NCBI GenBank assembly: GCA_944389385.1
Contig: CALXMC010000004.1
Coordinates: 8,254 to 72,253, forward strand
Direction of reading: 5' to 3'
From: an uncultured Alphaproteobacteria bacterium
Lineage (GTDB): Bacteria > Pseudomonadota > Alphaproteobacteria > Rs-D84
Length of the DNA stretch: 64,000 nt
The notes beneath the pieces were generated by a model. The model searched no databases and had not been told where the DNA came from. It saw only the letters and a list, made by a program, of their open reading frames with translations. The translations under genes were made by a program, and so were the position numbers. Positions 30,963 to 48,997 of the stretch are shown piece after piece. Position 1 is the first letter of the stretch. Each line of letters begins with the position of its first letter.

Positions 30963-31676
30963 ATGGATACATGTAATATTTTGGAATATATTGGCATGGG
31001 AGGCGATTATGTTATTAAAAATATAGTCAAACTTCTTACTAGCTGGCCTTTTATTGTACTGGTTGTGTTTTTTGCGCTCAGAAAATACTTTGTCGCAATT
31101 TTGAAAAAAATAAAAGAAGATTTGCGAGTAAAAGACAACAAATTTTCACTTGGTGACTCAAATCAGCCAGATATTCAAAATAGCACACAAGACAAATTAT
31201 TTGATATTCCTGCAACTACTTCTGATAAGAAGTTAAAAAAGCGTAAGGCAGAATACGATCTTCCAGAATTGCCTGATACGGGCTTGAAGGCTTATACATT
31301 AGAAATAGAAAATAAGTTAAAGAAAGATTTAGCGGAATCGCCGTATAAAAAAATAGATATAATGGTTAGGGATTCGACAAATTATAGGATAGCAACGGAG
31401 TTTGAACGTATATATAGAATTATCTTTGGAAGCCAAATACGATTGTTACGTCATTTGGAAGCAGCAAAAACACTAACAAAAAATGAAGTAGCTAAGTTTT
31501 TCAAACAAGAAAAACGTAAAATGCCGGATAGCAATATTGAATTAGAACCTTGGACCAAATTTGTGCAATCTCAGGGACTGATGGAGTACAAAGATGGGGA
31601 ATATACAATTACAAATAAAGGGTTAGCTTTTATAGCCTATTTAGCCCTTTTCAATTATGAGGATAGGCTGTGGTAA
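30963..31676 (+). CDS. Hypothetical membrane-anchored protein
   Basis: N-terminal TM (WPFIVLVVFFAL). K/E-rich soluble domain. 237 aa. Confidence 0.45.
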   Translation: MDTCNILEYIGMGGDYVIKNIVKLLTSWPFIVLVVFFALRKYFVAILKKIKEDLRVKDNKFSLGDSNQPDIQNSTQDKLFDIPATTSDKKLKKRKAEYDLPELPDTGLKAYTLEIENKLKKDLAESPYKKIDIMVRDSTNYRIATEFERIYRIIFGSQIRLLRHLEAAKTLTKNEVAKFFKQEKRKMPDSNIELEPWTKFVQSQGLMEYKDGEYTITNKGLAFIAYLALFNYEDRLW

Positions 31677-31728
31677 AAATAAAAAGAAAAAATAATGAAT
31701 AAATAGCCAAGTATCATTTTAAATAATG

Positions 31729-32247
31729 TTATATATTAAAAGTAGTAAAAAAATTTTGTAGTTCTTTATCTGAAACAGTGTGTGACAATATATCACTTAC
31801 ATTTTTCAAATTTGTTTTTTCTTTTGGATTTAATCTTTGGTGTCTTAAATTTTCAAAACATTTGCGTATAAGATGCTGTTTGGTGTCCGGTAAATAGGCG
31901 ATGCATGCTAAATGATTATTTTTTCTTTTGTTCATTAAATCAGATTCATTTTCAGTGCAGATTTTTCTGATGTCAAAATGAGAACATCCGGATAAATATT
32001 GTGTAGGTCTGGATGTTAATGAATCTTTTATCAAACATAACCATTCTTTTTCTGTTACAGAAAACGTTAAGCTATGATTTGTATAGTCTTTTGATGTAGA
32101 AACAAAAAAATACAGTACTTCCCGAATAAGAGGCATCCGGTTTATAAATAATTTATATTTACGTTTGCAAACATTTGTGGTTTCTTCTACAGATTGTTCA
32201 TCAACGTAACACCAAAACGGTTGAAAATATTCCATTTTAAGCAGCAT
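31729..32247 (-). CDS. Putative toxin partnered with a Panacea-domain antitoxin (no recognisable family)
   Basis: 172-aa ORF. 11-nt overlap with upstream Panacea gene in operon arrangement. No known toxin motif seen. Confidence 0.4.
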   Translation of the reverse strand: MLLKMEYFQPFWCYVDEQSVEETTNVCKRKYKLFINRMPLIREVLYFFVSTSKDYTNHSLTFSVTEKEWLCLIKDSLTSRPTQYLSGCSHFDIRKICTENESDLMNKRKNNHLACIAYLPDTKQHLIRKCFENLRHQRLNPKEKTNLKNVSDILSHTVSDKELQNFFTTFNI

Positions 32248-32725
32248 ACATATTTAAAACTTCACCCATATGCTCTGTGCCGCCAAGAGTCGCACCAATT
32301 AAAACCATAGGTTTTGTGTTATAGGCTATTTCTGTTAAAGTTTTAGCTCCGTATCCCTGCACATGTTCCAGCATAGTAGAAACAATGTTCAGTTCATCTG
32401 GTGACAAAGAATCTGTTTCTACTGATGTAGGATCGGTAAGATTGTAAACTACGTGCTCGTCGCTTCCAAAGAAACAGGATTCTGCAGATATCGTTCCTTC
32501 TTCGCGCATGTTTTCAAGGTTTTTGTAAATAGTACTATCAAAAGGACCAAAATTCCAACGGATATATTTAAATTCGGATATAGGTTTCCCAATATTGCGA
32601 ATTGCGGCCAAGTCAATCAAGTATGATATTTTTAGCAAACTAGTAACTCCGCGTGGGCCATCACGCAAAATGAGCGCCAAAAGCTGTTTCGTTTTCTGAC
32701 ACATAAAATTTCTCTTTGAGTTCAA
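32237..32725 (-). CDS. Panacea-domain (DUF4065, GepA/SocA-like) putative antitoxin
   Basis: KQLLALILRDGPRGVTSLLKISYLIDLAA...ISEFKYIRWNFGPFDSTIYKNLENM fits the DUF4065 pattern (LQKLLYLAD...W.YGPV...Y). Confidence 0.5.
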   Translation of the reverse strand: MNSKRNFMCQKTKQLLALILRDGPRGVTSLLKISYLIDLAAIRNIGKPISEFKYIRWNFGPFDSTIYKNLENMREEGTISAESCFFGSDEHVVYNLTDPTSVETDSLSPDELNIVSTMLEHVQGYGAKTLTEIAYNTKPMVLIGATLGGTEHMGEVLNMYAA

Positions 32726-33216
32726 TGCAATTATAACACATTATGTTAAAATTATAAAAGCATAAAATTAGGTTTTTAGAAAAATAGGACTAAAAAATAA
32801 AAAAAGCAACAAAAATATCTCGTTGCTCATGCTGACAATTATACCATAATTTGCTTAAAAAGTCAATAATAACTAGTTGTTGGTCACGAAAATATGGACT
32901 TGTAATAACTTGACATCTGTGTCAACTTGTGCTGGATGCGGCGGGGCAACCATGTCTGCCGGCATGTTAGGTTGCCGTTGTTTGTTCTGCGGATAGCTCC
33001 AACTCGTGTAATGATCGGCATGCTGCGAAATAAAGCATAATAAAATCCGTCTTATTACTGGGCTCAATTTCTCGAAAATGTTTGTACTTCATAGACAATC
33101 CTTTTAAGGTTGTCGTATTTGGCATAATCTTTCGTCACTTGCCCAGTCATTTGTTGTAACTAAAGGATATTGCTTGTTTTTCAATTTTTTGGTAATTTGG
33201 AACAAAAGGGGACAAA

Positions 33217-34017
33217 ATGGCAGATTATAAGGAATATCTGGATAAAATAAGAAATTCGCAGTTGTTATATTTTGATTCATTTCCATTGGATATGACGTCT
33301 TGTGAATATAATGTGCATTTGTTGTTGAATAAAATGGCGGAAGCAAGAAAGTCATACCTTTTGCTAATGGATAATGAACGATTTACGGATGCTATGTTGG
33401 TGGCAGGACATTTGCTAGAGAATGCAGCGGTGATCAATTATCTTTCTGCTAGCTTGCAAGAAGCTAATACAAAACAAATAAGCAAATATCTGGCACGAGA
33501 AACGGTACAAACTCTATGTGATTTATTCAAATTTGTAGGCGATGATAATGTGGATGCGGAAACTCAAGAAAATATAGATTTTATAATGGATGATTTTAAG
33601 AATAGATGCGACATAGTTGTATCGAAAAAAGCGGAACAAAGTCACGAAGAATTGGTCCAGACTATATTGATGGCTATGACAAATTCGGAAAAATTAAGAA
33701 TTATAAAAAATAATTACGAATTTCCGGTGGTTGAAGATTATTTGAGGCCGTTTAGGAAAGATTTATCAAATTTTTATGGTTTTTCCGGTATTGATAAAAA
33801 GCTTGTGTTGTTTTATTCGTCATATTGCAAAATAAAACACTGCGGGGCGGCTATGTATGTGCCAGTTCTATGCAAAGATATGGTTGTTATGAATAAAAAT
33901 CAGTACAGAGGCCTTAGCCCTATAGTTGTCTGGATGTGTTTGGAATACACAGAAAAGAATATAAAAAATATATTGTCAAAAATAAAACCAGAATTAGGAT
34001 TAACAGCCAAAAACTAG
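33217..34017 (+). CDS. Hypothetical protein (266 aa), convergent with reverse transcriptase
   Basis: Clean ORF. No recognised motif. Confidence 0.4.
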   Translation: MADYKEYLDKIRNSQLLYFDSFPLDMTSCEYNVHLLLNKMAEARKSYLLLMDNERFTDAMLVAGHLLENAAVINYLSASLQEANTKQISKYLARETVQTLCDLFKFVGDDNVDAETQENIDFIMDDFKNRCDIVVSKKAEQSHEELVQTILMAMTNSEKLRIIKNNYEFPVVEDYLRPFRKDLSNFYGFSGIDKKLVLFYSSYCKIKHCGAAMYVPVLCKDMVVMNKNQYRGLSPIVVWMCLEYTEKNIKNILSKIKPELGLTAKN

Positions 34018-34034
34018 ATGTTTTTTATAACGTT

Positions 34035-35576
34035 TTAATTTATTGGTTTATTGATAAGTGTTGTTATAAATTTGTTAAGTTCCACATCTTCTGAGTCTAT
34101 AATCTTTTTAACGCGTTCAAAATGTTTTCGCATTTGTTTTTTCAATGTGATATCGCCCATATCGTCAAAGGCTCTATTGACATAGGCCCAGAAAGTTCTT
34201 TTGCCTAGGTGTGTGTAATTCCTATATAAACTTCTCCTGTATAGTTTGGTTTTGATTTGTTTGGGGGCTTGGCCAGCTTCGACCAATCGTTTAATTTTGT
34301 TTTGTGTTGCTAAGCGCATGGATCTAATACCACGTTTGGATTTCCGTAAATATCTTGCCATACTAGAACCACGAATTTTTATGTCTTTGCCATCAAACGT
34401 GAATCCTAAATATTGTAAAGGGTCTTCGATTATTCTGTCAGAAGTAAAATCATAACATTTGCTTTTAGATTTTTTATTATCTTCGATTTGATGTATTGAT
34501 AAATATTTTCCTTGTTCTTTGATGGTTGTCATAATATGTCGGCATATATCTTCTTTTGAATCTTTATCGCATATAATCAAAATATCATCAGAATAACGTC
34601 TGTATACGGCACCATGGTTATTACAAAATTCATTCATGGATTTATCAAATGGCAGCATATAAATATTCGCTAATAACGCCGAAAGGGGAGAACCTTGCGG
34701 AATACCATATGGTGCATCTGTACCTTGAACACCAGGGTTAACATCAAATGTATGATTGTTGATTTTTTCTTTATTACAGATTTTTTGGTGTTGTTTATAC
34801 CATTGTCTAAATTTATGGAAATCGGACATATTGTTAAATAATTTTTGCGGTAATTTATATCCCCTTCGCAACGGGCAGTTTAAACAGGTTTTTGCAGTTG
34901 GAATACAATGCATACATTGCAAATACATTTTTATGATGTCAATATCGATGAAACTGTATTTAGTCAGTGTTTTATAAATATTGAAATGATCTGGTGGTAG
35001 GGTGTCGCAAGCGTCATCTCTACTAAGGAGCGCAGCCCATTGTTTTTTTAGGTTTTTATGGTCAATATAGTCATAAAAACTTTTTATATCGAATGCGAGA
35101 GCTAAGCAGTTGTTTTTTCTGCTTTTTATTATATCAAATACTTCTCGTGCAAAAGTAATATTATTTGCGACTTTTTGCATGTGTTTGGACTTACGGTATG
35201 CTAATACCACATCACCGAGCCCCAATTTTGAGAGCTTTTTTTCATATAAATCATACAATATAGTTGCATAATATGAAAAAATCATTGAATCAAAATGGGC
35301 GGCATATCTGATTGGACGTTTTTTTACAATAGATTGTTGTTGGTCTCTTGGCGTGGTTTTATCTATTTTAGATACGCGCCGTTCTTCAATGTCATACCCA
35401 ATAAAAGGCAGAAAGGGATGTTGGGCTATTTTATTGGCATTGGTTATATACTCGATAATGTTCTTAGCTGCGCTAGATATTGTGCCGTTTGGTAATCTGT
35501 ACGCGTTGATTGGAGCATCAATATGTTTATATTTTTTTCTATTATTATAAAAAAAAGATTCCCAATCAAATTCCAT
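34035..35576 (-). CDS. Stand-alone reverse transcriptase (defence-associated/Abi-like or retron-like; unclassified)
   Basis: RT motifs: motif 1 KKRPIRYAAHFDSMI, motif 2 LALAFDIKSFYDYIDH, motif 4 GIPQGSPLSALLANIYM, motif 5 YRRYSDDILI (YxDD), motif 6/thumb LQYLGFTF. ~90-aa insertion with CxxC...CxxC between motifs 2 and 4. No maturase or endonuclease domain. Confidence 0.75.
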   Translation of the reverse strand: MEFDWESFFYNNRKKYKHIDAPINAYRLPNGTISSAAKNIIEYITNANKIAQHPFLPFIGYDIEERRVSKIDKTTPRDQQQSIVKKRPIRYAAHFDSMIFSYYATILYDLYEKKLSKLGLGDVVLAYRKSKHMQKVANNITFAREVFDIIKSRKNNCLALAFDIKSFYDYIDHKNLKKQWAALLSRDDACDTLPPDHFNIYKTLTKYSFIDIDIIKMYLQCMHCIPTAKTCLNCPLRRGYKLPQKLFNNMSDFHKFRQWYKQHQKICNKEKINNHTFDVNPGVQGTDAPYGIPQGSPLSALLANIYMLPFDKSMNEFCNNHGAVYRRYSDDILIICDKDSKEDICRHIMTTIKEQGKYLSIHQIEDNKKSKSKCYDFTSDRIIEDPLQYLGFTFDGKDIKIRGSSMARYLRKSKRGIRSMRLATQNKIKRLVEAGQAPKQIKTKLYRRSLYRNYTHLGKRTFWAYVNRAFDDMGDITLKKQMRKHFERVKKIIDSEDVELNKFITTLINKPIN

Positions 35577-36219
35577 TGTTATAACCCAACAGCAAAATAC
35601 CCGGGAGACGCCAGGTTTGCGCTAACCATTTGAGACGTCTCTCGTAAACCTTGATTCTACTAAGCTGTGCTCAGTTTGGCTGGTCATCCTTGCTGTTCAC
35701 GCAAAAGTACACGCATAAATTATCAAAGGTTCTATATTTGTCGTAATGAACGTTATTATGAACCAAGGGAGGTCTTGATGATATTCGCACAAATCTTGTT
35801 TAAATGCTTCAATATTCAAGTTTGCCAAGATTCACTGGTCATAGTATTCTTTGCGTTGCAATGGATACTTGACTTCGTTTATTCGATCCCCCTGAACCTA
35901 AAGAACAGGGCAAATTAAATATAATTTTCTTTGGCAGGATTTCAAGTGGTTGAAATGATTTTTTTACGGTATTTGGTTTAGTTTTTTGTAACATAAATAT
36001 AAAACTTGCATTATGTTCAAAATATGTAGACAATCTTACTGATTGAAAAAGCATAAGTTATTCATAAGACGACGGATAGGTTACGGATCCTGTGTAGCTA
36101 TTGTGTAGCCAGAGGGGTGTTTTATGGCGTATTTTGGTGTATCGTAGTATGCGTAAATACAGAAGTGTTAATTTAAGAAAAATGCCGCAAACCTGCGGGG
36201 TTTACGGCGGAAATTCTTG

Positions 36220-36295
36220 GCTCGGGCAACTGGACTCGAACCAGTGACATACGGATTAACAGTCCGTTGTTCTACCGACTGAACTATGCCCGAAC
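36220..36295 (-). tRNA. tRNA-Asn (anticodon GTT), CCA encoded
   Basis: 76 nt: TCGGGCA TA GTTC AGTCGGTA GAAC A ACGGA CTGTTAA TCCGT ATGTC ACTGG TTCGAGT CCAGT TGCCCGA G CCA. Cloverleaf folds with GTT anticodon. Confidence 0.85.
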
Positions 36296-36413
36296 AGCCC
36301 GCATATCATATAATCTTTTTTATCCGATTTCAAGTACTTTTTTTATCCGTTGCGATTTTACTTTTTTAGTGCTATATTTTTACCCGTCCAATAAAAAACA
36401 TAGAGGAAGCAAA

Positions 36414-37238
36414 ATGTTATTAAAAGGAAAAAAGATTTTAATTACTGGTGTCGCAAATGATTGGTCTATGGCGTGGGCTATTGCCCGCCGCGCGCATGAC
36501 GAAGGCGCAGAAATCGCCATGCCGTATGCTATGCCAAATTTGGAAAAGCGCGTACGTCCGTTGGCTGAATCCATTGGCGCGAAATTTGTCCAGGAATGCA
36601 ACGTTCAAAACGATGAACAAATGGACGATTTGTTTAACAAAATTGAACAAGAATGGGGCAGGTTGGACGGCATGCTGCACGCGATTGCGTTTTCTGATAA
36701 AAACGAATTGACCGGGCGTTATGCAGACACCACACGTGCGAATTTCAAAAATACCATGGACGTGTCAGTATATTCTTTGGTTGATTTGACGCGTCGTGCA
36801 TCCAAACTGATGACAGACGGCGGCAGTATCGTTACATTAACATACTATGGCGGTGAAAAATCAGTACCAAATTATAATGTAATGGGTGTTGCAAAATCCG
36901 CCCTGGACAGCAGTGTTCGTTATCTGGCGTCTGACCTGGGGCGTGATAGAATTCGCATCAACGCAATCAGTGCGGGTCCGATTATGACTCTGGCGTCGTC
37001 TGGTGTTGGTGGAATGAAATCCATGCTGCGCCTGAATGCGGAACAAACTCCGCTGCGTCGCAATATGACGTTGGACGATGTGTCTGGTGCTGCGATTTAT
37101 TTGTTCAGCGATTTATCCAGTGCGGTTACCGGCGAAGTGCATCATGTTGACTGTGGATATTCTACAACTGGCATGATTCCAAACGATTTGAAAGATGTTT
37201 TATTGCGCGGCTTGGACGAGCAAAACGAACAAAAATAA
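36414..37238 (+). CDS. fabI: Enoyl-[acyl-carrier-protein] reductase (NADH), FabI
   Basis: MLLKGKKILITGVANDWSMAWAIA N-terminus (Rossmann). Catalytic Y...K context (YNVMGVAKSALDSSVRYLA). RBS GAGGAAG before ATG 36414. Upstream part of the tracked ORF overlaps the tRNA and is excluded. Confidence 0.8.
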   Translation: MLLKGKKILITGVANDWSMAWAIARRAHDEGAEIAMPYAMPNLEKRVRPLAESIGAKFVQECNVQNDEQMDDLFNKIEQEWGRLDGMLHAIAFSDKNELTGRYADTTRANFKNTMDVSVYSLVDLTRRASKLMTDGGSIVTLTYYGGEKSVPNYNVMGVAKSALDSSVRYLASDLGRDRIRINAISAGPIMTLASSGVGGMKSMLRLNAEQTPLRRNMTLDDVSGAAIYLFSDLSSAVTGEVHHVDCGYSTTGMIPNDLKDVLLRGLDEQNEQK

Positions 37239-37254
37239 AATCGTTTGTACTGAA

Positions 37255-37287
37255 AAAAAGTCCCGCAATTCTGCGGGATTTTTTATG
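37255..37287 (+). terminator. Rho-independent terminator after fabI
   Basis: AAAAAAGTCCCGCAATTCTGCGGGATTTTTTAT. Confidence 0.6.
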
Positions 37288-37468
37288 CTTTGATATTTTT
37301 TGAAACAAATGGCAAAGCCCACAATACTTACAAAAACGACAGGGTAAGAGTTTTGTTGGATTATTCCAATCATTTGAATTTTCCAAAATATCCCCGACCC
37401 AAGGATTTTTTTCTTAGTTCAACCAAACATCAAACCTTAGTTCGCCCAGCGACAAATAATCATCCACA

Positions 37469-37826
37469 ACACATCGTGGTTAATTTTTGGGGTTGGTTGT
37501 TTTGCGGATTATTCGACCAAATTCTTCTGGGGATATGTGGGCAAACGATATAATTTTGGCTATTGTTATGCACGAAGGCCAATGCAATTTACCATATTTG
37601 TCTATGCGTTTGCTTTTATTAAACGCGGTTGCGTCCAAACCACACGCACGTGCCAATCCTGACCGGCTTAGTCCATTTGATGCGGCGATATAATCAACCG
37701 CAGCCCAAATGCTTGCATGATTCATAATCCTTCCTTTTAGGTATAAATCCAGGAACAAATTCAAGGATAGGTTGTATTTTACCATATAATTCGCGTCTTG
37801 TATAATGGTTATTATTCCTATTGTTT
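37469..37826. repeat. Left copy of a ~360-bp perfect inverted repeat carrying an 81-aa HTH gene
   Basis: Reverse complement of 42391-42758. Encoded 101-aa tracked ORFs are identical. Confidence 0.8.
37480..37725 (-). CDS. Small XRE/phage-repressor-like HTH DNA-binding protein (copy 1)
   Basis: MNHASIWAAVDYIAASNGLSRSGLARACGLDATAFNKSKR...GKLHWPS. Start set at internal Met with RBS AGGAAGGA. 81 aa, same length as the paralog at 42951. Confidence 0.55.
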   Translation of the reverse strand: MNHASIWAAVDYIAASNGLSRSGLARACGLDATAFNKSKRIDKYGKLHWPSCITIAKIISFAHISPEEFGRIIRKTTNPKN

Positions 37827-37917
37827 TTTGAATGTTACACGAACAGAACTTGAATAATTGTTTGATTTTTTTTGGTTTGGGACTTAAAGTATCATTAAAG
37901 GTACATCAGGGTGATAT

Positions 37918-38703
37918 ATGATAAAAGAAATCAGTTATTCTGTGTATATTTTCCCAGTACGTAACGGCCGCGTGGCACTGTTAAAGTACGGTGATGATGG
38001 ATATGGTCCAATCGGCGGTCGTTTGGATGATTGCGAAAAATTCAACGATGCCCTGGGGCGCGAATTGGTGGAAGAATTGGGTGTCGGCGCTGATGTTTTA
38101 TTAAAAGACGCATTTGAAATACCTGTGTCGTATAAATTCAAACATTCATTGCCGGAACAGGCTGAAAAACGTGGCGCATGGGCCGAAGAGCATCATTTTT
38201 ATATCGCGCAAATACCAGATGACTTTGATATTGAATTTTGCGAGTCGCGCCCAGAAAAAGTTTCTGTGGTATGGGTTTCGCCAGATGAACTGGTTTCGCC
38301 AAACATCATACCATTTGATGATATGCGCGTATTTTATGCAACGCATATTGTGCCGAACCTGGCGTGCAGATTTTCTATGAATTTACAACACCAATACTAT
38401 GAAATGATAAAGTCGGGCGAAAAAGATATAGAATTACGCCTGTATGATGAAAAGCGGCGCAAAATGCGCAATGGCGATATGCTGTTGATTTATGACGCAC
38501 AAAATCCGTCGGATTATATTCGTTGCATAATATCACGTTTGCATATCGCCAAAAGTTTTGCGGATTTATCAACCAAAATCAGTATGCCACGAACTGGTTT
38601 CCCAACATTAAACGCATTGTTGGGCGCTGTGTCGAAATTTTATTCCCCCGACATGGAAACTAAACATGGCATCGTGGGCATAGAACTGATGTTCGCGGAA
38701 TAA
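37918..38703 (+). CDS. Nudix hydrolase fused to C-terminal ASCH domain
   Basis: Nudix box GGRLDDCEKFNDALGRELVEELGV. C-terminal YYEMIKSGEKDIELRLYDEKRRKMRNGDML matches ASCH pattern. Confidence 0.6.
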   Translation: MIKEISYSVYIFPVRNGRVALLKYGDDGYGPIGGRLDDCEKFNDALGRELVEELGVGADVLLKDAFEIPVSYKFKHSLPEQAEKRGAWAEEHHFYIAQIPDDFDIEFCESRPEKVSVVWVSPDELVSPNIIPFDDMRVFYATHIVPNLACRFSMNLQHQYYEMIKSGEKDIELRLYDEKRRKMRNGDMLLIYDAQNPSDYIRCIISRLHIAKSFADLSTKISMPRTGFPTLNALLGAVSKFYSPDMETKHGIVGIELMFAE

Positions 38704-39703
38704 TTCCAGAAATACCAATGTCGCACAGATGTGTATAAATCGGCTTGTCCAATCCCAATGCTGCGATAAGCGTACTGGGGTTTTGTTTTGTCCATAAATT
38801 TTGGTATGACACAACATTATTTTTTATCGTTTTTATCAGACCGCTGGGTAATTCTGACCGCCCGATACAAGACGACATATATACAAAGCATTCGTCATTA
38901 TCTGCCAAATTCGCACATGCCAATATACGCGCGTATACGTTCAGTGTTACATCCGCCTTGGTTGGGTCTTTGGTCCATGGACTGCCGCCGCCGATGGGGC
39001 AAGCAGTCGAATAAAAATCGCACGCCAATTTACGCCCAGTTATACCGCAATCCGCCACAGATGAATGATATGTATATCGTCCTGTGCCGTTAACAATTAT
39101 ATTGTTTGGCGTCTGGCCCAATGTATCAACGATGAAATCAGTTAAATCGGCATCATGCAACATTGGAATTGCAACAATTGCGGTCTCGATTGAATCATCG
39201 TTCAGTGTAATCTGGGTTTTTATGTCCAATCCAAAATTATCAGATTTCCGTGCCATATCATACAATGCACGGTTTAATTTTTTTGCCAAGAATAATTCGC
39301 GGTTTATTTTTTGTTCGCCACGACATGCGTACCCGACAAATACACCTTGGTCGCCCCATCCGTCGGCAACAACGCCGCGGTTAATATCCGCAGATTGCAC
39401 CCCCAGTAAATTTACGATTTTTAATTTTTGGGGACAAATCGCAAAATCGCCCCAAATCGCAGAATACCTTTCATCATACCCAATTTCTGCCAATGCGGCA
39501 CTTACATATTCTGGTATACGTTCAAAATCTACGTTGCCAGTGATTTCTCCGCCCAGTACAACAGTGTTGTCTTTGATCATAACCTCGGTCGCATATTTTA
39601 CGTGCACATCTTGCGCAATCATGCGATCCAAAATGTAACAAGAAATATAGTCTGCAATTTTATCTGGATGTCCCAACGATACAGATTCAGCCGTTTTTTG
39701 CAT
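38660..39703 (-). CDS. metK: S-adenosylmethionine synthetase (MetK); C-terminus possibly aberrant
   Basis: GHPDKIADYIS, GDQG, GGGSPWTKDPTKAD motifs. Start set at ATG 39703. C-terminal ~30 aa do not match the expected TAAYGHFGR region. 44-nt convergent overlap with 37918..38703. Confidence 0.7.
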   Translation of the reverse strand: MQKTAESVSLGHPDKIADYISCYILDRMIAQDVHVKYATEVMIKDNTVVLGGEITGNVDFERIPEYVSAALAEIGYDERYSAIWGDFAICPQKLKIVNLLGVQSADINRGVVADGWGDQGVFVGYACRGEQKINRELFLAKKLNRALYDMARKSDNFGLDIKTQITLNDDSIETAIVAIPMLHDADLTDFIVDTLGQTPNNIIVNGTGRYTYHSSVADCGITGRKLACDFYSTACPIGGGSPWTKDPTKADVTLNVYARILACANLADNDECFVYMSSCIGRSELPSGLIKTIKNNVVSYQNLWTKQNPSTLIAALGLDKPIYTHLCDIGISGIIPRTSVLCPRCHV

Positions 39704-40062
39704 AATTTTCTCCTTTGGTTTTGCAAATAATATAACCAAAGGCGGATTTACACAACGTATCAAATACAGTACGCATAACATGTGCGCCAAGATACGTAAA
39801 ATTATGGGATTTTTTCACAATAACACCCCCATATTTAGTCCATTTATAAGGCAGGACAAGTCTGGTTAAATCCACCTAAGTTGGGGGTGATTGTAACATA
39901 ATTTCTGTGTCTTAATCAACAAAAAATATAATCGCCAACGGTAAAGACACAAAAATTGTGAAAATATGGTATTTTTTCTTGATTTTTTATTTTTTATATG
40001 GCAAAATTAGCCCCGAACTTTGGAAAATGTGATGCAAACGCATCCATTTCCAGTTCAGTTTT

Positions 40063-40138
40063 GGGGACATAGCTCAGTTGGTAGAGCAAATGACTTTTAA
40101 TCATTGGGTCCAGGGTTCGAGTCCCTGTGTCCCCACCA
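40063..40138 (+). tRNA. tRNA-Lys (anticodon TTT), CCA encoded
   Basis: GGGGACA TA GCTC AGTTGGTA GAGC A AATGA CTTTTAA TCATT GGGTC CAGGG TTCGAGT CCCTG TGTCCCC A CCA. Confidence 0.85.
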
Positions 40139-40141
40139 AGA

Positions 40142-40176
40142 AAACCCGCGGACACCCGCGGGATTTTTGTTTTTTG
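40142..40176. terminator. Rho-independent terminator after tRNA-Lys, possibly bidirectional for the DHFR-like gene
   Basis: AAACCCGCGGACACCCGCGGGATTTTTGTTTTTT. Confidence 0.6.
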
Positions 40177-40187
40177 ACGCCAATTAT

Positions 40188-40694
40188 TTATCTGGATTTT
40201 TTGCGTATCCAACGCGATATTTTTATATCGATGTCATTGTGTTCTGATGGCCAGTTCGCACCATTTACATTTAATACATCAGACAGAACATAATCCCGAC
40301 GAAAATCCGTCGGAAAATATGTATATTTGTCCGGATTATGTCGTACATCTGCCGCCAATGCGTCAGAATAAATTTCAGACACATACAATACGTCTGTAAT
40401 TTCTTTATCGATTACATATTTATAAATACTGCCCCCGCCACAGACAAATGTTGTTTTGTACGGATATGTTATGCGGCTGATTTTGATTGCGTTTTCTATC
40501 GAGTTTGTTTTTATATATTTTGTTCCACTATCGGTTGGCATCGGTTGGAATTTTGGGAAATTGCGACTGCATACAATATTTCCCCGACCGCGCAATGGGT
40601 AATGTGGCAAGTTATAAAAAGTTGTTGCCCCAAAAATACACGGATGGTTCACAGTTGCTTTTTTGAAAAAATAAAAATCTTTATCAGAATGCAA
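40188..40694 (-). CDS. Dihydrofolate reductase-like protein (non-ATG TTG start; N-terminal region short)
   Basis: [29 protein letters not shown] aligns with DHFR [34 protein letters not shown] matches the DHFR GGG motif. Minus-strand start codon reads TTG directly after an in-frame TAA. Lacks ~20 N-terminal residues of canonical FolA. Confidence 0.45.
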   Translation of the reverse strand: [168 protein letters not shown]

Positions 40695-40804
40695 TTATAT
40701 CAAATTGGAATTAGAAGTCTAGTCGCAACAAAAACATTTGTTGGCAACATTTTGAACAAATTATATCAAATTGGAATAACAGGTCAGTGGGTAACGAAGA
40801 ATAA

Positions 40805-40888
40805 AAGAAAAGACCCGGCGTCCCCAGAGTGCCGCTGCGAACTCGGCTTAAGCAGTTGAATTTTACCCCTCTGGTCATCGGGTCTTCA
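40805..40888 (-). terminator. Long interrupted hairpin plus U-tract downstream of 40936..41622
   Basis: Minus-strand RNA: AAGACCCG...CCAGAG...CUCUGG...CGGGUCUU then UUUUCUUUUAUU. Confidence 0.4.
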
Positions 40889-40935
40889 ACAAAAGTTATA
40901 AATCAGTCGGATTCCAAAGTCAAGCCTGTATCCCA

Positions 40936-41622
40936 TTATGAACGAATTAAGTAATTATTATCGGTATTAAAATCCTTTACCAATACACTTGGTGCTTTGT
41001 GCCCGGCGCACAACGCACCTGCAAACATTAACACCATTTCGGTCGGGATGCCGCCCAGTTCCACAGTTATGGATTTTTCATTAAATACAACTTCTTTTTC
41101 TGTATCTTTATAATTTCCGACGAAATTATTACCAATATTATATCCGCCAACATACAAAGAATCCAATTCAAGACTCGATTTCCATTTGTTTATTACTTTT
41201 TTGATTTTTTTGTCGTTGGACGCATTTATGAACCCGTATATTTTTTTTAACTCGGATTTAATATTCGATTTATCTGTATTGGTGCCGTTTGGGAACACAA
41301 CCATCCCGCCGCGATAATCAGAAAATCCGTATCGCGTGGTTTTCTTTGATTCGATATACGAATCCGTCATAGGATGGTTATTAAAACCGTTTTTATTTTT
41401 CCAAATTGTTTGTTCAATCCATCCGCGGGTCAATCCCGATGGGCGGGTATCCAATCCGTCTGATCTGAAATATTTTATTTTTTTAATTTTCATATTTGCC
41501 CCCATACCACTACTATTTTGTGTCGGATGTACCTCAACCGTGTCAAATTGAAAACGTCCGACATTTGAAGCGTTAACAACAAAACTAAGGCCGTTGGGTA
41601 ATTTTATTACCTTGTTCATCAT
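40936..41622 (-). CDS. Hypothetical protein (228 aa)
   Basis: Protein-like composition, N/K-rich. No motif recognised. Confidence 0.4.
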   Translation of the reverse strand: MMNKVIKLPNGLSFVVNASNVGRFQFDTVEVHPTQNSSGMGANMKIKKIKYFRSDGLDTRPSGLTRGWIEQTIWKNKNGFNNHPMTDSYIESKKTTRYGFSDYRGGMVVFPNGTNTDKSNIKSELKKIYGFINASNDKKIKKVINKWKSSLELDSLYVGGYNIGNNFVGNYKDTEKEVVFNEKSITVELGGIPTEMVLMFAGALCAGHKAPSVLVKDFNTDNNYLIRS

Positions 41623-42298
41623 AGTCTAAATAGTTCCATTTTTTATCTTCTTCAATGGTGGCAAAGCAGCATTTTATATCTGGTTCACAATTTTCTTCAT
41701 AAATTTTTTCGACGCATCCGAAACTGGGACCTGCGCAGTATGCGCGTGCAAAGGCTTTTGGATATCCGCGCGATATTTTATTTTCTATACATTCTTTGCG
41801 AACAACGTCTTCAATATCGTCCATGGTGCCGAATACTACTATACTTGCGCCGAAAAGAAACGCCCAAAAGCATAATACGCTGAACGATATCATAGTGGTA
41901 TTTTGTTGAGGCATCTTGCTTTTTGGGTTGGCAAACAAATAAATCAGGCAAAGAACAGATATTGCCGCACAAATCAAAACAATTACATCGTCAAATCTTG
42001 GGAAATCCCAAAAAACTCTGCCAAATTTTACCACATAATACAGCCACCACCCACAACAAAACAGTACAAATCCATGTGCAAATTTGCTGTTTTTTATTAT
42101 CAAGTATCCAACTGAAAACATCGTGGCGGCAAAAGTAAGCCCGACAAGTATCATCGACAATATACTGATCGTGGCCGCCACACCAATCCATACAAACGCA
42201 ATCGCGAATATAATGACGGCCTGGATGTATTTCATCCAATCGTACCAATTTAACATTTTTATACGATTAAAGATTTGTTTTTGCGGGTTCACAGGCAT
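41585..42298 (-). CDS. Hypothetical multi-pass membrane protein
   Basis: Several hydrophobic helices (AVIIFAIAFVWIGVAATISILSMILVGLTFAATMF...). Confidence 0.45.
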   Translation of the reverse strand: MPVNPQKQIFNRIKMLNWYDWMKYIQAVIIFAIAFVWIGVAATISILSMILVGLTFAATMFSVGYLIIKNSKFAHGFVLFCCGWWLYYVVKFGRVFWDFPRFDDVIVLICAAISVLCLIYLFANPKSKMPQQNTTMISFSVLCFWAFLFGASIVVFGTMDDIEDVVRKECIENKISRGYPKAFARAYCAGPSFGCVEKIYEENCEPDIKCCFATIEEDKKWNYLDYDEQGNKITQRP

Positions 42299-42390
42299 TC
42301 TCCTTTGTATGATAATACCCGATTTTTTACAAAAATCTATAAAATTACGACAAATAAAAGTCGGGTTAACGTTCTGTTACTTGGCGCTTG

Positions 42391-42758
42391 AAACAATAGG
42401 AATAATAACCATTATACAAGACGCGAATTATATGGTAAAATACAACCTATCCTTGAATTTGTTCCTGGATTTATACCTAAAAGGAAGGATTATGAATCAT
42501 GCAAGCATTTGGGCTGCGGTTGATTATATCGCCGCATCAAATGGACTAAGCCGGTCAGGATTGGCACGTGCGTGTGGTTTGGACGCAACCGCGTTTAATA
42601 AAAGCAAACGCATAGACAAATATGGTAAATTGCATTGGCCTTCGTGCATAACAATAGCCAAAATTATATCGTTTGCCCACATATCCCCAGAAGAATTTGG
42701 TCGAATAATCCGCAAAACAACCAACCCCAAAAATTAACCACGATGTGTTTTTATATAC
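42391..42758. repeat. Right copy of the ~360-bp inverted repeat
   Basis: Reverse complement of 37469-37826. Confidence 0.8.
42492..42737 (+). CDS. Small XRE/phage-repressor-like HTH DNA-binding protein (copy 2, identical to copy 1)
   Basis: Identical protein to 37480..37725. ATG at 42492 preceded by AGGAAGGA. Confidence 0.55.
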   Translation: MNHASIWAAVDYIAASNGLSRSGLARACGLDATAFNKSKRIDKYGKLHWPSCITIAKIISFAHISPEEFGRIIRKTTNPKN

Positions 42759-42950
42759 TGTGGTCTGCGGGGGTGTATGAATAAATAATTTTAACATCAG
42801 ATATTGCATGTTATACGTGTCAATTTCTGATGTTTTTTATTACGAATATATTCCTGTAATTTTTGGTTGATTTTTATACAAAATACAATCATAATAAGAA
42901 TATAGTCAAAGAAATCCTGGGGTTAACAGAATATTTGTTTAGGGGGAGTC

Positions 42951-43196
42951 ATGATAACAAATTCTATGTTTTGGCATGCGATAGATAACCTGGCGGCGTC
43001 ACGTAACATGTCTTGTTCGCGTATGGCGCAAATCAGTGGTATGGATATAACTGCACTGAATAAATGCAAGCGTCGCGGTGCAGATGGCAAACCACATTGG
43101 ATGTCGGTCGGCAGTTTAGTCAAAATCATGAATGCCACAAATACCACTTGGCGTGAATTTGCAGATTTTTTCCCACCCGACCGCGGCCGTGAATAA
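42951..43196 (+). CDS. Paralogous small HTH DNA-binding protein (81 aa)
   Basis: MFWHAIDNLAASRNMSCSRMAQISGMDITALNKCKRRGADGKPHWMSVGSLVKI shares the W..(V/I)D.(I/L)AAS...S.S..A...G(L/M)D.TA.NK.KR...GK.HW.S pattern. Confidence 0.5.
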   Translation: MITNSMFWHAIDNLAASRNMSCSRMAQISGMDITALNKCKRRGADGKPHWMSVGSLVKIMNATNTTWREFADFFPPDRGRE

Positions 43197-43218
43197 AATT
43201 ATATTTCCGTTGTGTTAA

Positions 43219-45249
<2,031 letters not shown>

Positions 45250-45252
45250 CGA

Positions 45253-45873
45253 TTACAACCCAAACTTATACGCCGCGCCGATATAGAATTCTGTTCCATC
45301 GACTTCGATATTGTAATGATTGCCTGCGGCGTCGGTCATTTCCAAATCGCCATAGTTTTGATACTTTACGCCCAAATTCAAATCGATGCGTTCGTTCAGT
45401 GCGAAATTGACACCAATCATCGCCGCCCAAGACATATCGGCCGTTGCATCAGACATATCCAGTGCGCCATCAACGCTGCCCCAGATGCCGGAAACACCAA
45501 CGCCCAATCCTGCATACGGTTCAACCGCGCCACCGAATTGTTTGTATAAATACACATTCAGCATATTCGACCAAACATCAAAATTATAATTGTTGCCGTT
45601 TTTGCTTTTATTTGCGTATGTGTATTCTGTTTCGAATTCCAATTTCAAAAAATCGGTCAAACGATTTCCAACAATTAACCCGAAACCAAAACTGTCATCG
45701 CGAACCTTGAACCCATCGCCATTTTCAGGCTCAACCCCAAACGCCAAATTGTCATTTTTGTGCAAACGCACGCCGACATAGTTGTCGCGCCGCGGCGTCT
45801 GGCCGCCGTATTCGTTCGCCATCGCGGGCACAGTCATAAATAACGCAGTCATAATTGCAAATAATTTTTTCAT
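45253..45873 (-). CDS. Outer-membrane beta-barrel protein (Omp25/OmpW-like)
   Basis: Signal peptide MKKLFAIMTALFMTVPAMA. Alternating amphipathic beta-strand pattern. Aromatic C-terminal region. Confidence 0.6.
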   Translation of the reverse strand: MKKLFAIMTALFMTVPAMANEYGGQTPRRDNYVGVRLHKNDNLAFGVEPENGDGFKVRDDSFGFGLIVGNRLTDFLKLEFETEYTYANKSKNGNNYNFDVWSNMLNVYLYKQFGGAVEPYAGLGVGVSGIWGSVDGALDMSDATADMSWAAMIGVNFALNERIDLNLGVKYQNYGDLEMTDAAGNHYNIEVDGTEFYIGAAYKFGL

Positions 45874-45966
45874 TCCCCATTCCTTTTATACAAAATGTAA
45901 CACGACGCATTATAGTTTTAATTTATGGAAAAACGCAAGTTGTTTGTGATATAATTCCATAAAACC

Positions 45967-47748
45967 ATGGGGAAAGATTTGCAGAAAAAAAATATCGCAT
46001 CACGAAAAAATCAGTCTGAACCGCGGACGTCCCGCGGATTGCGTATATTTGTTTGGTGTGTTGATTTATTTATGCTGTTGTTGGTTGGGGTTGCGATATA
46101 CGTTGTGATTGTGTTTTTGCAGATGCCGTCACTGGATGCGATTTTACACGAAACTCGTCCGGCGACCATTATTATTTTGGATCAAGACGGCAATGAAATT
46201 CGTGCGTCAAATCGCATAATGGGAACACCTGTGTCTGTCGAGTCTTTGCCCCCACACGTATGGCAATCGATTATCGCGATTGAAGACAAGCGTTTCTTTG
46301 AACACGGTCCGATTGAATTTCGCGCGATTGCACGTGCAATGATTTCAAATTTAATGCGCGGTCGTTTGGCTGCGGGCGGTTCAACAATTACACAACAAAC
46401 GGCCAAGAATATATTTTTATCGCGTGAAAAAAAGATTTCACGAAAAATCCAAGAACTGATTTTGTCATATTGGTTGGAAAACAGATTTACAAAAAATCAA
46501 ATACTGGATTTGTATATGAATCGTGTGTCTTTGGTTGGCGGGCTGCGTGGGATTGACGCGGCGGCGCGCATGTTGTTCCAACGTTCTGCAAAAGAATTAT
46601 CCATTGCCCAGGCTGCACAAATCGCCGCCATGTTAAAGGCCCCAACCGCATACAGTCCATTGGCAAATCCCGATAAAAACATTGCCCGCGCCCGCGTAAT
46701 ATTGCAAGAAATGGTGCGCCAGGGATATATCACATTGAACCAGGCGCGAATTGCTGCGCGACAATTGGCGCCCGCTGTGCCTGGGCATAACACAAATATT
46801 TATCGTTATTGGACAGACTTCGTCCTGGACGAGGTTAAATCAACCATCGGCACATTGGAATCTGATTTATATGTTTATACCACACTGGATATGAAATTAC
46901 AGGAACGTGTTGCCGATATTTTGCCGCGCCATGTTGGCGAATATCAGGGTGCGGCCGTTGCCATGGATACGGGTGGCGCGGTGCGTGCGATGGTTGGTGG
47001 AACTGATTATCAAGAAAGTCAATTTAATCGCGCGTTGGCACTGCGCCAACCCGGCAGTTCGTTTAAGCCCGTTGTATATCTGGTGGCGTTGGAAAATGGC
47101 ATGACGCCCGACAGTTATGTTAATGATTCTCCGTTTTCAATTGGCGATTATTCACCACAAAATTATAACAAGCGTTATTACGGTGATATAACTTTGGCGA
47201 CCGCATTTGCAAAGTCTGTTAATTCGGTGCCATTGAAATTAACCCAAGAATTTGGAATCGATAATGTATTGAATATGGCGGGTCGTTTGGGTGTGGGTAA
47301 TAAATTGCGGCGCGAATATTCAACCGTTTTGGGTGCGTCTGAAATGTCTTTGTTGGATTTGACGACAATATATGCGGTCATTTGGAACGACGGGTATTCT
47401 GTGCGCCCGTATTCAATCACAAAAATCACAGACGCGCATGGCAACATAATTTATGAACGCAATCCATCCGAACCGTTACAGGTTTTAATGCCACAAACTG
47501 TGGATTATATGACTGAATTATTGGCCGACGTGGTAAAGCCCGCCGGTACGGGTCACCGTGCAATGGCACCCGGTGTATTGGGCGGAAAAACAGGCACCAG
47601 TAATGATAACCGCGATGCTTGGTTTGTTGGCGCGTGGAATAATTTGATAATTGGGGTTTGGACGGGCAACGATAACTTTACCCCCATGTCGTCAAAAATA
47701 ACCGGCGGCACAATCCCCGCAACGATATTCCATGAAATTGTGAAATAA
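45967..47748 (+). CDS. Class A penicillin-binding protein (GT51 transglycosylase + transpeptidase)
   Basis: GT51 motifs EDKRFFEHGPIEF, GGSTITQQ. Transpeptidase SSFKP (SxxK), SVN (SxN), KTGT. N-terminal TM anchor. Confidence 0.8.
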   Translation: MGKDLQKKNIASRKNQSEPRTSRGLRIFVWCVDLFMLLLVGVAIYVVIVFLQMPSLDAILHETRPATIIILDQDGNEIRASNRIMGTPVSVESLPPHVWQSIIAIEDKRFFEHGPIEFRAIARAMISNLMRGRLAAGGSTITQQTAKNIFLSREKKISRKIQELILSYWLENRFTKNQILDLYMNRVSLVGGLRGIDAAARMLFQRSAKELSIAQAAQIAAMLKAPTAYSPLANPDKNIARARVILQEMVRQGYITLNQARIAARQLAPAVPGHNTNIYRYWTDFVLDEVKSTIGTLESDLYVYTTLDMKLQERVADILPRHVGEYQGAAVAMDTGGAVRAMVGGTDYQESQFNRALALRQPGSSFKPVVYLVALENGMTPDSYVNDSPFSIGDYSPQNYNKRYYGDITLATAFAKSVNSVPLKLTQEFGIDNVLNMAGRLGVGNKLRREYSTVLGASEMSLLDLTTIYAVIWNDGYSVRPYSITKITDAHGNIIYERNPSEPLQVLMPQTVDYMTELLADVVKPAGTGHRAMAPGVLGGKTGTSNDNRDAWFVGAWNNLIIGVWTGNDNFTPMSSKITGGTIPATIFHEIVK

Positions 47749-47781
47749 ATTGCTTGAATGAAAATTTCGGTTTTTGTATGA

Positions 47782-47967
47782 TTGGCGCGCGGGCGCACAA
47801 CTGTTGCTATTGCGCACAGATTATCCACTTTGCGTAATATGGATAAAATCGTGGTGTTAAACAATGGCGTGGTGGTGGAATACGGCACACACAATCAATT
47901 ACTGCGCCGTCGCGGCGAATATTGGCGGTTGTGGAATTTGCAATCCGGTGGATTTATCCAAGAATAA
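47782..47967 (+). pseudogene. Remnant of an ABC exporter ATPase C-terminus (MsbA-like)
   Basis: 61-aa [39 protein letters not shown]...[10 protein letters not shown] equals the H-loop and C-terminal tail of ABC ATPases. No upstream Walker A, signature or TMD. Confidence 0.6.
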
Positions 47968-48003
47968 TTTTGTTTTTATTATATCAAAATTTGTGATATA
48001 ATA

Positions 48004-48993
48004 ATGGGCATGAAGTGTAGGAAACTGTTTCTTTTACCGTTGTTGTCATGCCTGGTGGTGGGCGCGGCGCGTGCGAATTGGGAATATCCTGGTTACTATA
48101 TTGGCGAAGGCGCCTATACCGATGATGGCAGTCGATTTACGTTTTCATTCCGTGGCGGTATGTCATTTGGATTTGGCTCGATTCAGAACGATATCGGGGA
48201 ATTAACCCCACTGTATTACAGTGACGGTGTGTCTATATTGTCCGAATTGGCATATTTACAGGGAATAAATTCTGTAAACAGCACGGATTACGAAAATTTT
48301 ATGCCGATTGGATACGTTAATATCGGCGATTTATCGCCGACCAAGGATTATGATTCTTTCACATTTGCGGCGGGTGCCAGTATCGGTTGGACGGTTCCGA
48401 ATTCGCCGCAATGGCGCATAGAATTTGGTTGGGATCATATTTCCGAAAGTGAATACAACGCGTCGCCGTTTTTATCTGGCGATGCCACGTTGTTGGGCAC
48501 AGAACAAAGTGATGTTGTCGCGAATATATCCAGTGGTGCTGTGCAATCGTCTGTCATGACCGATATTTTCAGCATCATGGCATTTTATGATTTTTATTCT
48601 GGCATGCAAAAACCTGTACGCACGTTGATTCCATATTTTGGTTTTGGGGTCGGGTACGCAGATATTTTGACAACGCTGAACATGACGGATTTGTATGGTG
48701 ATTTGTCGTTAAGTACGGATTTGTTGCCGTATGGCGACAAGGCCGACGAATTAAGCCCAATACAGTTTTATCGTTCAGAACGTAATATTGCAAATATTGC
48801 GGGATTGTTGGCGTTGGGTGTGTCGTACGGCATAGATAAAAATACTTATTTTGATTTTGGTGTGCGCGCGGCGTATATTCCTGAAATTCGGTGGTCTTTG
48901 TCGAATGCGGATGGCACGCTGTACCGTGATTGGTTTTCGTCGCAAAATACATTTTACATAAACGCGATGATCGGTCTGCGGTTCGAGTTTTAA
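48004..48993 (+). CDS. Outer-membrane beta-barrel protein
   Basis: Signal peptide (LLPLLSCLVVGAARA). C-terminal GLRFEF with terminal Phe. Beta-strand periodicity. Confidence 0.6.
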   Translation: MGMKCRKLFLLPLLSCLVVGAARANWEYPGYYIGEGAYTDDGSRFTFSFRGGMSFGFGSIQNDIGELTPLYYSDGVSILSELAYLQGINSVNSTDYENFMPIGYVNIGDLSPTKDYDSFTFAAGASIGWTVPNSPQWRIEFGWDHISESEYNASPFLSGDATLLGTEQSDVVANISSGAVQSSVMTDIFSIMAFYDFYSGMQKPVRTLIPYFGFGVGYADILTTLNMTDLYGDLSLSTDLLPYGDKADELSPIQFYRSERNIANIAGLLALGVSYGIDKNTYFDFGVRAAYIPEIRWSLSNADGTLYRDWFSSQNTFYINAMIGLRFEF

Positions 48994-48997
48994 GTTA

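Follow-up and report, generated by a model that had tools for sequence, protein, structure and literature searches.

A strain-variable gene block between inverted regulator cassettes is found in both orientations in a lineage of Candidatus Enterousia

Introduction

When a block of genes is enclosed by two perfect inverted repeats, does it turn over, and if it does, is the turning a programmed switch or a by-product of the repeats themselves? The question is raised by a segment of DNA from an uncultured gut alphaproteobacterium, lying in a 64,000-nt stretch of contig CALXMC010000004.1 that was analyzed as a whole and is here called the window (all coordinates are positions in it). In this segment a Nudix-ASCH gene, metK, a tRNA-Lys gene, a DHFR-like gene and two further genes, unk1 and unk2, stand between two inverted copies of a gene for a small helix-turn-helix (HTH) protein. 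An earlier note on this DNA, made from the sequence alone, had listed these genes as we find them and had predicted that recombination between the two copies would invert everything between them. In a collection of species-representative genomes, nearly all relatives of the LigA encoded beside the segment come from ‘Candidatus Enterousia’ or from uncultured Alphaproteobacteria metagenome-assembled genomes (MAGs) of animal and human guts; the genus Enterousia belongs to the order Rs-D84 and has genomes below about 1 Mb (PMC12306168).

The reading that we favor, and regard as probable, is that the segment is a strain-variable accessory block of one Enterousia lineage, flipped by homology-dependent recombination between the inverted regulator cassettes at its ends, and that this flipping is largely neutral, with no programmed switch behind it. 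Below, orientation A is that of the window itself, and orientation B has the interior flipped.

An exact inverted repeat that carries a whole gene

A repeat search of 35–46 kb returned one inverted pair only, with arms at 37468–37826 and 42391–42749. A scripted check confirmed that each arm, 359 nt long, is the exact reverse complement of the other (100% complementary); 4564 nt separate them. The perfect repeats with identical HTH genes described in the earlier note are therefore present, and its coordinates match ours apart from the end of the right arm, which it had put 9 nt too far out, at 42758 instead of 42749. Each arm contains one open reading frame (ORF) of 81 aa together with 101 nt 5′ of the ATG and 12 nt beyond the stop codon. 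HTH-L (37480–37725, minus strand) points toward fabI, and the identical HTH-R (42492–42737, plus strand) points toward HTH3 and ligA; both genes thus point outward, and their upstream regions face the interior. Beyond the arm ends there is an abrupt loss of similarity: when the flanks were aligned globally, the inner and the outer ones alike gave negative scores, and a search for a degenerate extension of the repeat past the arms found none. Just outside the right arm stands the third paralog that the earlier note had pointed out, HTH3 (42951–43196, plus strand), a resident protein of 81 aa that is 39% identical to the arm copy.

The possibility that such a repeat is a product of collapse during assembly, which the earlier note had named among the things that would refute its proposal, is not borne out, because the two-armed structure is shared by more than 20 independent assemblies, in some of which the arms differ at 1–5 sites. 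The perfect identity of the arms in the window is probably real too, since some assemblies do keep the arms distinct, with collapse at this one place still conceivable as far as contigs alone can tell.

Both orientations occur in independent assemblies

Dozens of metagenome contigs that are 98–99.9% identical to the window were recovered by looking up the exact proteins of metK, HTH3 and fabI; they come from two cohorts, whose names begin with BRZ_ and ONAT22-. Orientation A, with the order fabI, HTH-L, Nudix, metK, tRNA-Lys, DHFR, unk1, unk2, HTH-R, HTH3, ligA, is found in the window, in L001/L114/L124 (and 8–9 similar places), and in L002, L003, L127 and L130. Orientation B, in which the interior is exactly reversed, is found in L115/L125 (a 69.5-kb contig with 33x coverage), L117, L128, L129 and L131, and its right-hand junction is also present in L004, L005, L116, L118/L126, L119, L120 and L121. 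In L115, the blastn blocks run along the window from 36207 to 37826, then backward from 42749 to 40781 and from 40692 to 37468, and then forward again from 42391 to 50197, and the overlaps between them are exactly the 359-nt arms. L115 and L117 carry this exact inversion between the arms inside single contigs of 44–70 kb. Among the sources of B contigs are ERZ24773343 (L115/L125), ERZ24773334 (L131) and ERZ28615110 (L117), and among those of A contigs ERZ24773238 (L001) and ERZ24773318 (L002); samples BRZ_GE, BRZ_FN and SAMEA6814553 gave B, and BRZ_AS and BRZ_ER gave A. As the blocks switch exactly at the arms when A and B are compared, the breakpoints lie inside the repeats. The inversion that had been predicted from a single sequence is thus seen in independent assemblies, and comparison of synteny adds that sister contigs of the lineage show both A and B, and sister species an empty site.

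Orientation, strain relationship and concerted evolution of the arms

We compared single-nucleotide polymorphisms (SNPs) in a 2866-nt interior block (37827–40692) among 16 contigs of known orientation. At 18 of the 38 informative biallelic sites all four combinations of orientation and allele are present, and nearest relatives are found in opposite orientations: L127 (A) has its nearest relative in L121 (B), with 6 differences, L005 (B) in the window (A), with 7, and L130 (A) in L004 (B). The deletion allele at the DHFR/CRISPR junction described below is present in A (the window and L001) and in B (L121), and the undeleted allele likewise occurs in both. Flipping is recurrent, because orientation does not track the SNP haplotype; the pattern could be produced either by several flips of the block or by recombination between strains across it.

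Across the lineage the flips are repeated, yet within a clone the orientation appears stable. L115, L128 and L131 have identical interior haplotypes in different samples and are all B (3/3), the same is true of L129 and L120 (2/2, B), and the window, the identical L001 and L002, which is 2 SNPs away, are all A (3/3). This agreement counts against both an arbitrary choice by the assemblers and rapid switching within populations.

The two arms evolve in concert. Sixteen arm positions vary among contigs, and lineage-specific variants are mostly carried by both arms of a contig: L001 has five identical changes in both arms, while the remaining 19 kb of that contig are identical to the window, and private variants in both arms are also seen in L127, in L115/L128/L131 and in L117. 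The arms of one contig differ at 0, 0, 0, 4, 5, 2, 1, 0, 1 and 2 positions (mean 1.5), compared with a mean of 3.4 between contigs, values to be read with the caveat that assemblers can collapse repeats; arm-to-arm identity in sister contigs is 98.6–100%. These shared variants bear out the suggestion of ongoing gene conversion that the earlier note had drawn from the perfect identity. One variant behaves differently. At arm position 352, which lies 8 nt short of the outer edge, L003 (A) and the B contigs L115, L117, L128 and L131 all have C in the arm beside HTH3 and G in the arm beside fabI. The base stays with its flank, the outcome expected of crossovers that occur within the arm.

The block is absent from sister species

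Among genomes that span this site, the nine closest (ligA 83–88% identical, plus L113) have it empty, with the fabI terminator, HTH3 and ligA coming directly after fabI; one of them, L052, is without HTH3 as well. HTH3 is otherwise kept upstream of ligA in sister species, with 71–93% identity. Relative to the empty-site genomes L113, L047, L049 and L051, which we aligned, the window has 5546 nt of extra DNA, at 37287–42832. A lack of the duplication in relatives had been seen beforehand as a sign against the proposal; it is indeed lacking at fabI-HTH3-ligA in sister species, and the consequence is that the structure is young and lineage-specific, not that it is an artefact.

At the left edge of the extra DNA, in the T-tail of the fabI terminator, lies one copy of an 8-nt direct repeat, TTTTTTAT (37279–37286). 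The other copy (42833–42840) is inside a hairpin and T-run downstream of HTH-R (AACATCAGATATTG / CAATTTCTGATGTT, 42793–42840, plus strand), and homology with the sister genomes resumes there. The pair, being formed by the T-tails of two terminators, may be a target duplication, microhomology or a coincidence. Unique DNA lies outside both arms, 181 nt on the left (37287–37467, downstream of HTH-L) and 83 nt on the right, so the inverted repeats are not the termini of the inserted DNA; an alignment test found no terminal inverted repeats at the ends of the insertion itself. The G+C content of the block is 0.37–0.43, against 0.45–0.50 to its right. The DNA upstream of fabI differs in nearly every strain, and in this lineage the fabI-ligA neighborhood and the tRNA-Asn site next to it form a hotspot of accessory and defense DNA.

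The regulator cassette

Database relatives of the HTH protein of the arms number only eight, and every one comes from an Enterousia-like metagenome. An AlphaFold2 model built on the alignment of those relatives has five helices (pLDDT 86.4), and its best Foldseek matches are the controller (C) proteins C.BclI, C.Esp1396I and C.AhdI of restriction-modification (R-M) systems, with TM scores of 0.67–0.73 and a probability of 1.0, at weak E-values of 0.03–0.3; other small Xre regulators are also among the best fold matches in the PDB. We therefore describe it as an Xre/Cro-type five-helix regulator. By sequence the protein has no match above threshold in Pfam, NCBIfam or PHROG and none in the PDB, and HTH3 scores 17.5 bits against HTH_26, under the 22-bit cutoff. 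An exact lookup of the 81-aa sequence was also empty, because in other strains the gene callers picked another start or the protein has a one-residue difference.

The likeness to the C proteins (C.BclI 2b5a, C.Esp1396I 3clc) goes beyond length (~80 aa) and the five-helix Xre fold (TM ~0.7), in that C proteins and other small Xre regulators, like the arm protein, are encoded at the edge of horizontally variable cassettes with their own conserved promoter and leader. However, sequence identity is only 16–24%, no C-box-like palindrome was found here and no R-M genes are under apparent control of the arm protein; moreover, unlike a C gene, the arm gene is duplicated and inverted, at both ends of the cassette that it borders.

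Consensus scans of the inner part of each arm predict two overlapping, back-to-back promoter-like sites (37776–37806, mirrored at 42411–42441). One of them, TATACA-17-TAAAAT on the minus strand in the left arm, would be the outward promoter of the HTH gene; the other, TTTACC-17-TATAAT on the plus strand in the left arm, would be directed inward, toward Nudix-ASCH, and is the sole promoter-like site that the scans found upstream of Nudix-ASCH and of unk2. In other species, where homologs occur in single copy, conservation covers the gene and ~95 nt upstream of it, including the TATACA and TAAAAT hexamers, and the inner boundary of the repeat (42391) is 6 nt from the point where this conservation starts. 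Since the boundary coincides with the start of the conserved upstream region, the unit that was duplicated is a complete regulator cassette. The arm protein most likely autoregulates.

Another Enterousia-like species has a homologous cassette (76% protein identity) that is itself repeated, over 282–344 nt, in two distinct flanking contexts (L134 7905–8248; L137 847–1189; L136 and L138, both 1–282). One of these contexts includes an adjoining NUDIX gene, and two of the L134–L138 contigs come from the same sample and both begin at the repeat. A broader idea, which we consider unlikely, is that the ~350-nt HTH cassette is more than a regulator and serves as a portable homology ‘handle’ that recurs along the edges of variable DNA in Enterousia-like genomes, with paired cassettes promoting both inversion and the wholesale exchange of cargo between strains. 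If this were true, it would amount to a recombinase-free architecture for swapping cassettes of accessory and defense genes (CRISPR-Cas9, Abi/Rep, metabolic paralogs) in a genome-reduced symbiont.

How the block flips, and whether it matters

We propose that the block, which sits between fabI and HTH3-ligA with a complete small-regulator cassette at either end in inverted orientation, would be flipped by recombination between these near-identical 359-nt cassettes, which would turn over the interior of 4.6 kb, or ~11 kb where CRISPR-Cas9 is included. Associated gene conversion keeps both arms alike, and flips have recurred across the lineage, with orientation stable within a clone. Inversion would then be a largely neutral by-product of the duplication of the cassette. 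Homology-dependent recombination would be the economical mechanism, and RecA may take part in it, although another pathway could serve as well. General alternatives for the origin of an inversion are homologous recombination and dedicated invertases (PMC4272514). No recombinase or transposase domain was found in any gene of 36–47 kb with Pfam, NCBIfam, PHROG or PADLOC, and a Pfam scan of the ~40 larger ORFs of the window gave a single recombinase, the integrase (19267–20475) of an island at tRNA-Asn, which is replaced by other DNA in sister strains that flip too.

Because the identical arms each hold a whole HTH unit, the junction sequences and the pairings of promoters with genes are the same in A and B, and because no such pairing changes, there is no sign of a programmed switch. 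The arm protein probably also controls the divergent cargo operons, that is, Nudix-ASCH on one side and unk2-unk1-(CRISPR-Cas)-DHFR on the other, a role that we can only infer because the inward promoter is not conserved and no palindromic operator was found.

Several points weigh against this account or parts of it. The inward promoter is a consensus match only and is absent from the cassettes of other species, and no inverted repeat of at least 8 nt that could serve as a palindromic operator is present in 37700–37930 or in the arms. The proposed neutrality is read from the symmetry of the arms and junctions, and the orientation of genes relative to replication, or read-through from fabI, may yet have effects. 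Inversion between 1,748-bp inverted repeats in S. aureus is recA-independent (PMC6778178). Finally, the orientation calls depend on short-read assemblers having crossed 359 nt of repeat, and many contigs end inside the arms or 55 nt into them (L006–L010, L122, L123), which is the expected behavior of short-read assemblers at an unresolved repeat.

Programmed phase variation, in which a site-specific invertase encoded elsewhere would act on sites in the arms and switch the expression of the cargo or of the flanking genes, seems improbable to us. It would account for the fact that both orientations are common, with roughly equal numbers of contigs, and the window covers just 64 kb of a genome of ~0.9–1 Mb, in which such an enzyme could be encoded; L126 has a resolvase-family gene upstream of fabI. 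Nevertheless, the arms are 359 nt long and contain a whole gene, in contrast to recombinase sites of 14–40 bp, and no invertase lies in or beside the block, the only recombinase found among the scanned ORFs of the window being the island integrase, which has attachment (att) repeats of its own of 48–53 nt. Both orientations occur even though nearly every strain has different DNA upstream of fabI, and the sameness of the junctions and the clonal stability of orientation, both noted above, speak against switching of expression and against fast switching, respectively.

That the block is or was a mobile element, a composite transposon or a foldback element with the arms as its functional ends and an HTH protein that aids mobilization, is as improbable in our judgment. 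The DNA is absent from sister genomes and flanked by the direct repeat TTTTTTAT, the homologous cassette is repeated with different flanks in L134–L138, and the cargo varies by strain (CRISPR-Cas is present or absent, and L119 carries an Abi/Rep element), all of which speaks for such an element. However, the arms encode just an 81-aa Xre-type HTH protein and no transposase, integrase or relaxase domain, they are set back from the ends of the insertion, which are themselves without terminal inverted repeats, and the 8-nt repeat could, as said, be microhomology or chance. In addition, the block was seen at one locus only in this lineage, and no phage or plasmid record carries it.

An arbitrary choice by short-read assemblers between two paths through a collapsed 359-nt repeat node appears the least likely explanation, for although both paths are valid in a de Bruijn graph and the frequent contig ends at the arms mean that the repeat often stayed unresolved, full-length contigs were obtained by two different pipelines from more than 15 samples, identical haplotypes from independent samples share one orientation, and arms distinguished by SNPs were assembled separately, with the position-352 variant staying beside its HTH3-side flank in A and B as real crossovers predict.

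The cargo is a mosaic

The earlier note had called the segment between the repeats a housekeeping segment. This holds for the tRNA-Lys, which looks like the normal gene of the lineage, but the block as a whole is absent from the closest genomes and lower in G+C than its right flank, and the description also fails for metK, which falls short of its equivalog cutoff, and for the DHFR gene, which is truncated at its 5′ end beside a CRISPR scar. The cargo is thus a mosaic and not a housekeeping operon.

The Nudix-ASCH fusion (37918–38703, plus strand; 261 aa; Pfam NUDIX and ASCH) is divergent from HTH-L and has homologs, 62–71% identical, at other loci in many Enterousia MAGs. It converges with metK, and the 3′ ends of the two genes overlap by 44 nt (38660–38703).

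The metK gene (38660–39703, minus strand) encodes a methionine adenosyltransferase (MAT) of the short form, 347 aa, with matches to TIGR01034, phrog_1569 and MetK structures in the PDB. It scores 156 bits against the MetK equivalog TIGR01034, whose cutoff is 309.4, and 231 bits against the phage family phrog_1569; its GHPDK, GDQG and GGG...KD motif regions align with those of solved MetK structures, which suggests that it is probably an active MAT. The protein is only 74–79% identical to every other copy. The short form as such (~336 aa) is the ordinary metK of the genus, found on Enterousia contigs of 0.6–0.9 Mb, and some sister strains have a second metK of 336 aa just upstream of tRNA-Asn and fabI (L125 8429–9439, also in L128 and L132); the L125 copy is 91–94% identical to the chromosomal metK of other Enterousia and is thus of the core type. 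No core-type copy is present in the 64 kb of the window, and judged by these identities the metK of the block is a divergent gene of a second type.

Relatives of this metK, 63–74% identical, are also found in contigs of temperate phages, beside genes for a ParB-like DNA methyltransferase, a serine integrase, a terminase and a portal protein; the methyltransferase gene adjoins metK at 9245–10573 of L014 and at 7442–8698 of L011, an arrangement that would be consistent with phages supplying S-adenosylmethionine (SAM) for DNA methylation. A phage origin of the metK of the block was considered and then softened, the short MAT form being normal for the genus and the block copy merely a divergent second type. 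A wider proposal, that the cargo as a whole is a phage module or prophage remnant, is unsupported: metK alone has relatives in IMG/VR, and no other cargo gene lies near them. Searches of GenBank phages and PLSDB plasmids gave only metK and tRNA stretches in common, and none of these records contains the block.

The tRNA-Lys(UUU) gene (40063–40138, plus strand; found by ARAGORN and with 77.5 bits by Rfam) is followed by a terminator-like hairpin. Its counterpart in other Enterousia species matches it at 76 of 76 positions and is likewise found no more than 10 kb from fabI and ligA. In L119 the DNA 3′ of this gene is replaced, with a breakpoint at 40146, and positions 1–4122 of that contig encode Abi_C and a rolling-circle Rep (REP_ORF2-G2P); since this element is carried there, the 3′ side of the tRNA-Lys gene is suggested to be an integration site itself.

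Two genes on the minus strand complete the cargo. The 228-aa product of unk1 (40936–41622) has no match in Pfam, NCBIfam, PHROG, PADLOC or the PDB; unk2 (41585–42298), divergent from HTH-R, encodes 237 aa with hydrophobic N-terminal segments and a Cys-rich C-terminus in its translation and has no family match in Pfam, NCBIfam, PHROG or PADLOC. PADLOC assigned no defense system to any cargo gene.

A DHFR remnant and a CRISPR scar

Between the tRNA-Lys gene and unk1 lies the DHFR remnant (40188–40694, minus strand), which covers only profile positions 25–125 of Pfam DHFR_1. In L003–L008 and L115–L131 the DHFR protein has 195 aa, and the junction alignment indicates that the window copy is ~27 N-terminal codons short, which makes it probably a pseudogene. 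It is adjoined by a CRISPR scar (40694–40780, minus strand), delimited by alignment of repeats and junctions, that consists of an intact 36-nt repeat, a 30-nt spacer and a degenerate repeat; the intact repeat is the reverse complement of 40694–40729, GTTGCGACTAGACTTCTAATTCCAATTTGATATAAT. At the position of the scar, L126/L116/L118 have an array of ~19 repeats with cas1, cas2, cas9 and an anti-repeat-like sequence next to cas9; the type II CRISPR-Cas region used for comparison is 13021–14297 and 14457–19071 of L126. By this comparison the scar is a remnant of a type II array. The deletion in the window extends from the first CRISPR repeat into DHFR, and where CRISPR-Cas9 has been retained, the invertible interior measures ~11 kb.

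The neighboring tRNA-Asn island

To the left of fabI the window carries an integrative island of ~18 kb at tRNA-Asn (18246–36293), and every sister strain has other DNA at this site. The island is bounded by a 48–53-nt direct repeat of the 3′ half of tRNA-Asn (18246–18298 and 36210–36262). Its genes include those for the P4-like tyrosine integrase mentioned above (19267–20475), Fic (20693–21799), a Schlafen-like helicase (22567–24642), a DUF5677 protein, a type IIG restriction-methyltransferase (26526–30593), a SocA/Panacea-domain protein (32237–32725) and a DRT2 reverse transcriptase (34035–35576). From the DRT2 start to tRNA-Asn, ~640 nt (35577–36217) are free of ORFs and have no Rfam match at gathering thresholds; this is presumably the place of the template non-coding RNA of DRT2. 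Two other regions of 1.2–2.9 kb, 12750–15620 and 18081–19267, have no ORF of at least 120 aa and no Rfam match, and the Rfam scan of the whole window returned two tRNAs only.

Comparison with known systems

Homology-dependent inversions are known between rRNA operons, copies of insertion sequences (IS) and prophages, and between the paralogous hsdMS loci of S. aureus (PMC6778178; PMC4272514). As in the locus studied here, they take place between near-identical inverted repeats of hundreds of bp, have their breakpoints within the repeats, are reversible and occur in both orientations in natural isolates, and they are hidden from standard short reads if the repeat is longer than the read or fragment. 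What differs here is that the repeat is a complete small-regulator cassette of just 359 nt, that the inverted piece is 4.6–11 kb rather than hundreds of kb, and that the host is uncultured, with a genome of ~0.9–1 Mb and the locus known from metagenome assemblies only. With its long near-identical repeats, both orientations and concerted evolution, the locus belongs functionally with this class.

Invertase systems (Hin/Gin/Cin/Pin, the fim switch and the ‘invertons’ of gut bacteria) share with it a segment that is bounded by inverted repeats and found in two orientations. Yet in those systems a serine or tyrosine recombinase encoded next to the segment acts on short sites and switches a promoter or a coding sequence, and this locus has none of these features; nor do its arms contain the transposase that marks a composite transposon, the 81-aa Xre-type HTH protein being their only product. 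On these points the locus differs from both invertase-driven switches and composite transposons.

Plastid genomes offer a further parallel. Their inverted repeats, of 10–25 kb, are identical copies kept uniform by gene conversion, and the unique region exists in two orientation isomers that are equimolar within the cell and have no functional consequence. The locus described here resembles them in its two inverted copies that are kept uniform and in the two orientations of the DNA between them; unlike the plastid isomers, its orientation seems fixed within a clone and differs between strains.

Implications

The inversion described here is real but fairly ordinary and driven by repeats; it reveals no new mechanism, and no expression switch is apparent. 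There is a practical side to it, in that MAGs of Candidatus Enterousia built from short reads will be interrupted or wrongly oriented at this locus. At the same time, public metagenome assemblies alone were enough to detect recurrent flipping, in an uncultured gut bacterium with a genome below 1 Mb, and in some strains of this lineage a complete CRISPR-Cas9 locus rides inside the invertible block. Along with these points, what sets this case apart is the repeat unit, a complete regulator cassette resembling those of C proteins and present at either end of a variable accessory block. The locus offers a clean natural demonstration that a short duplicated regulator cassette suffices for the repeated flipping of a multi-gene block.

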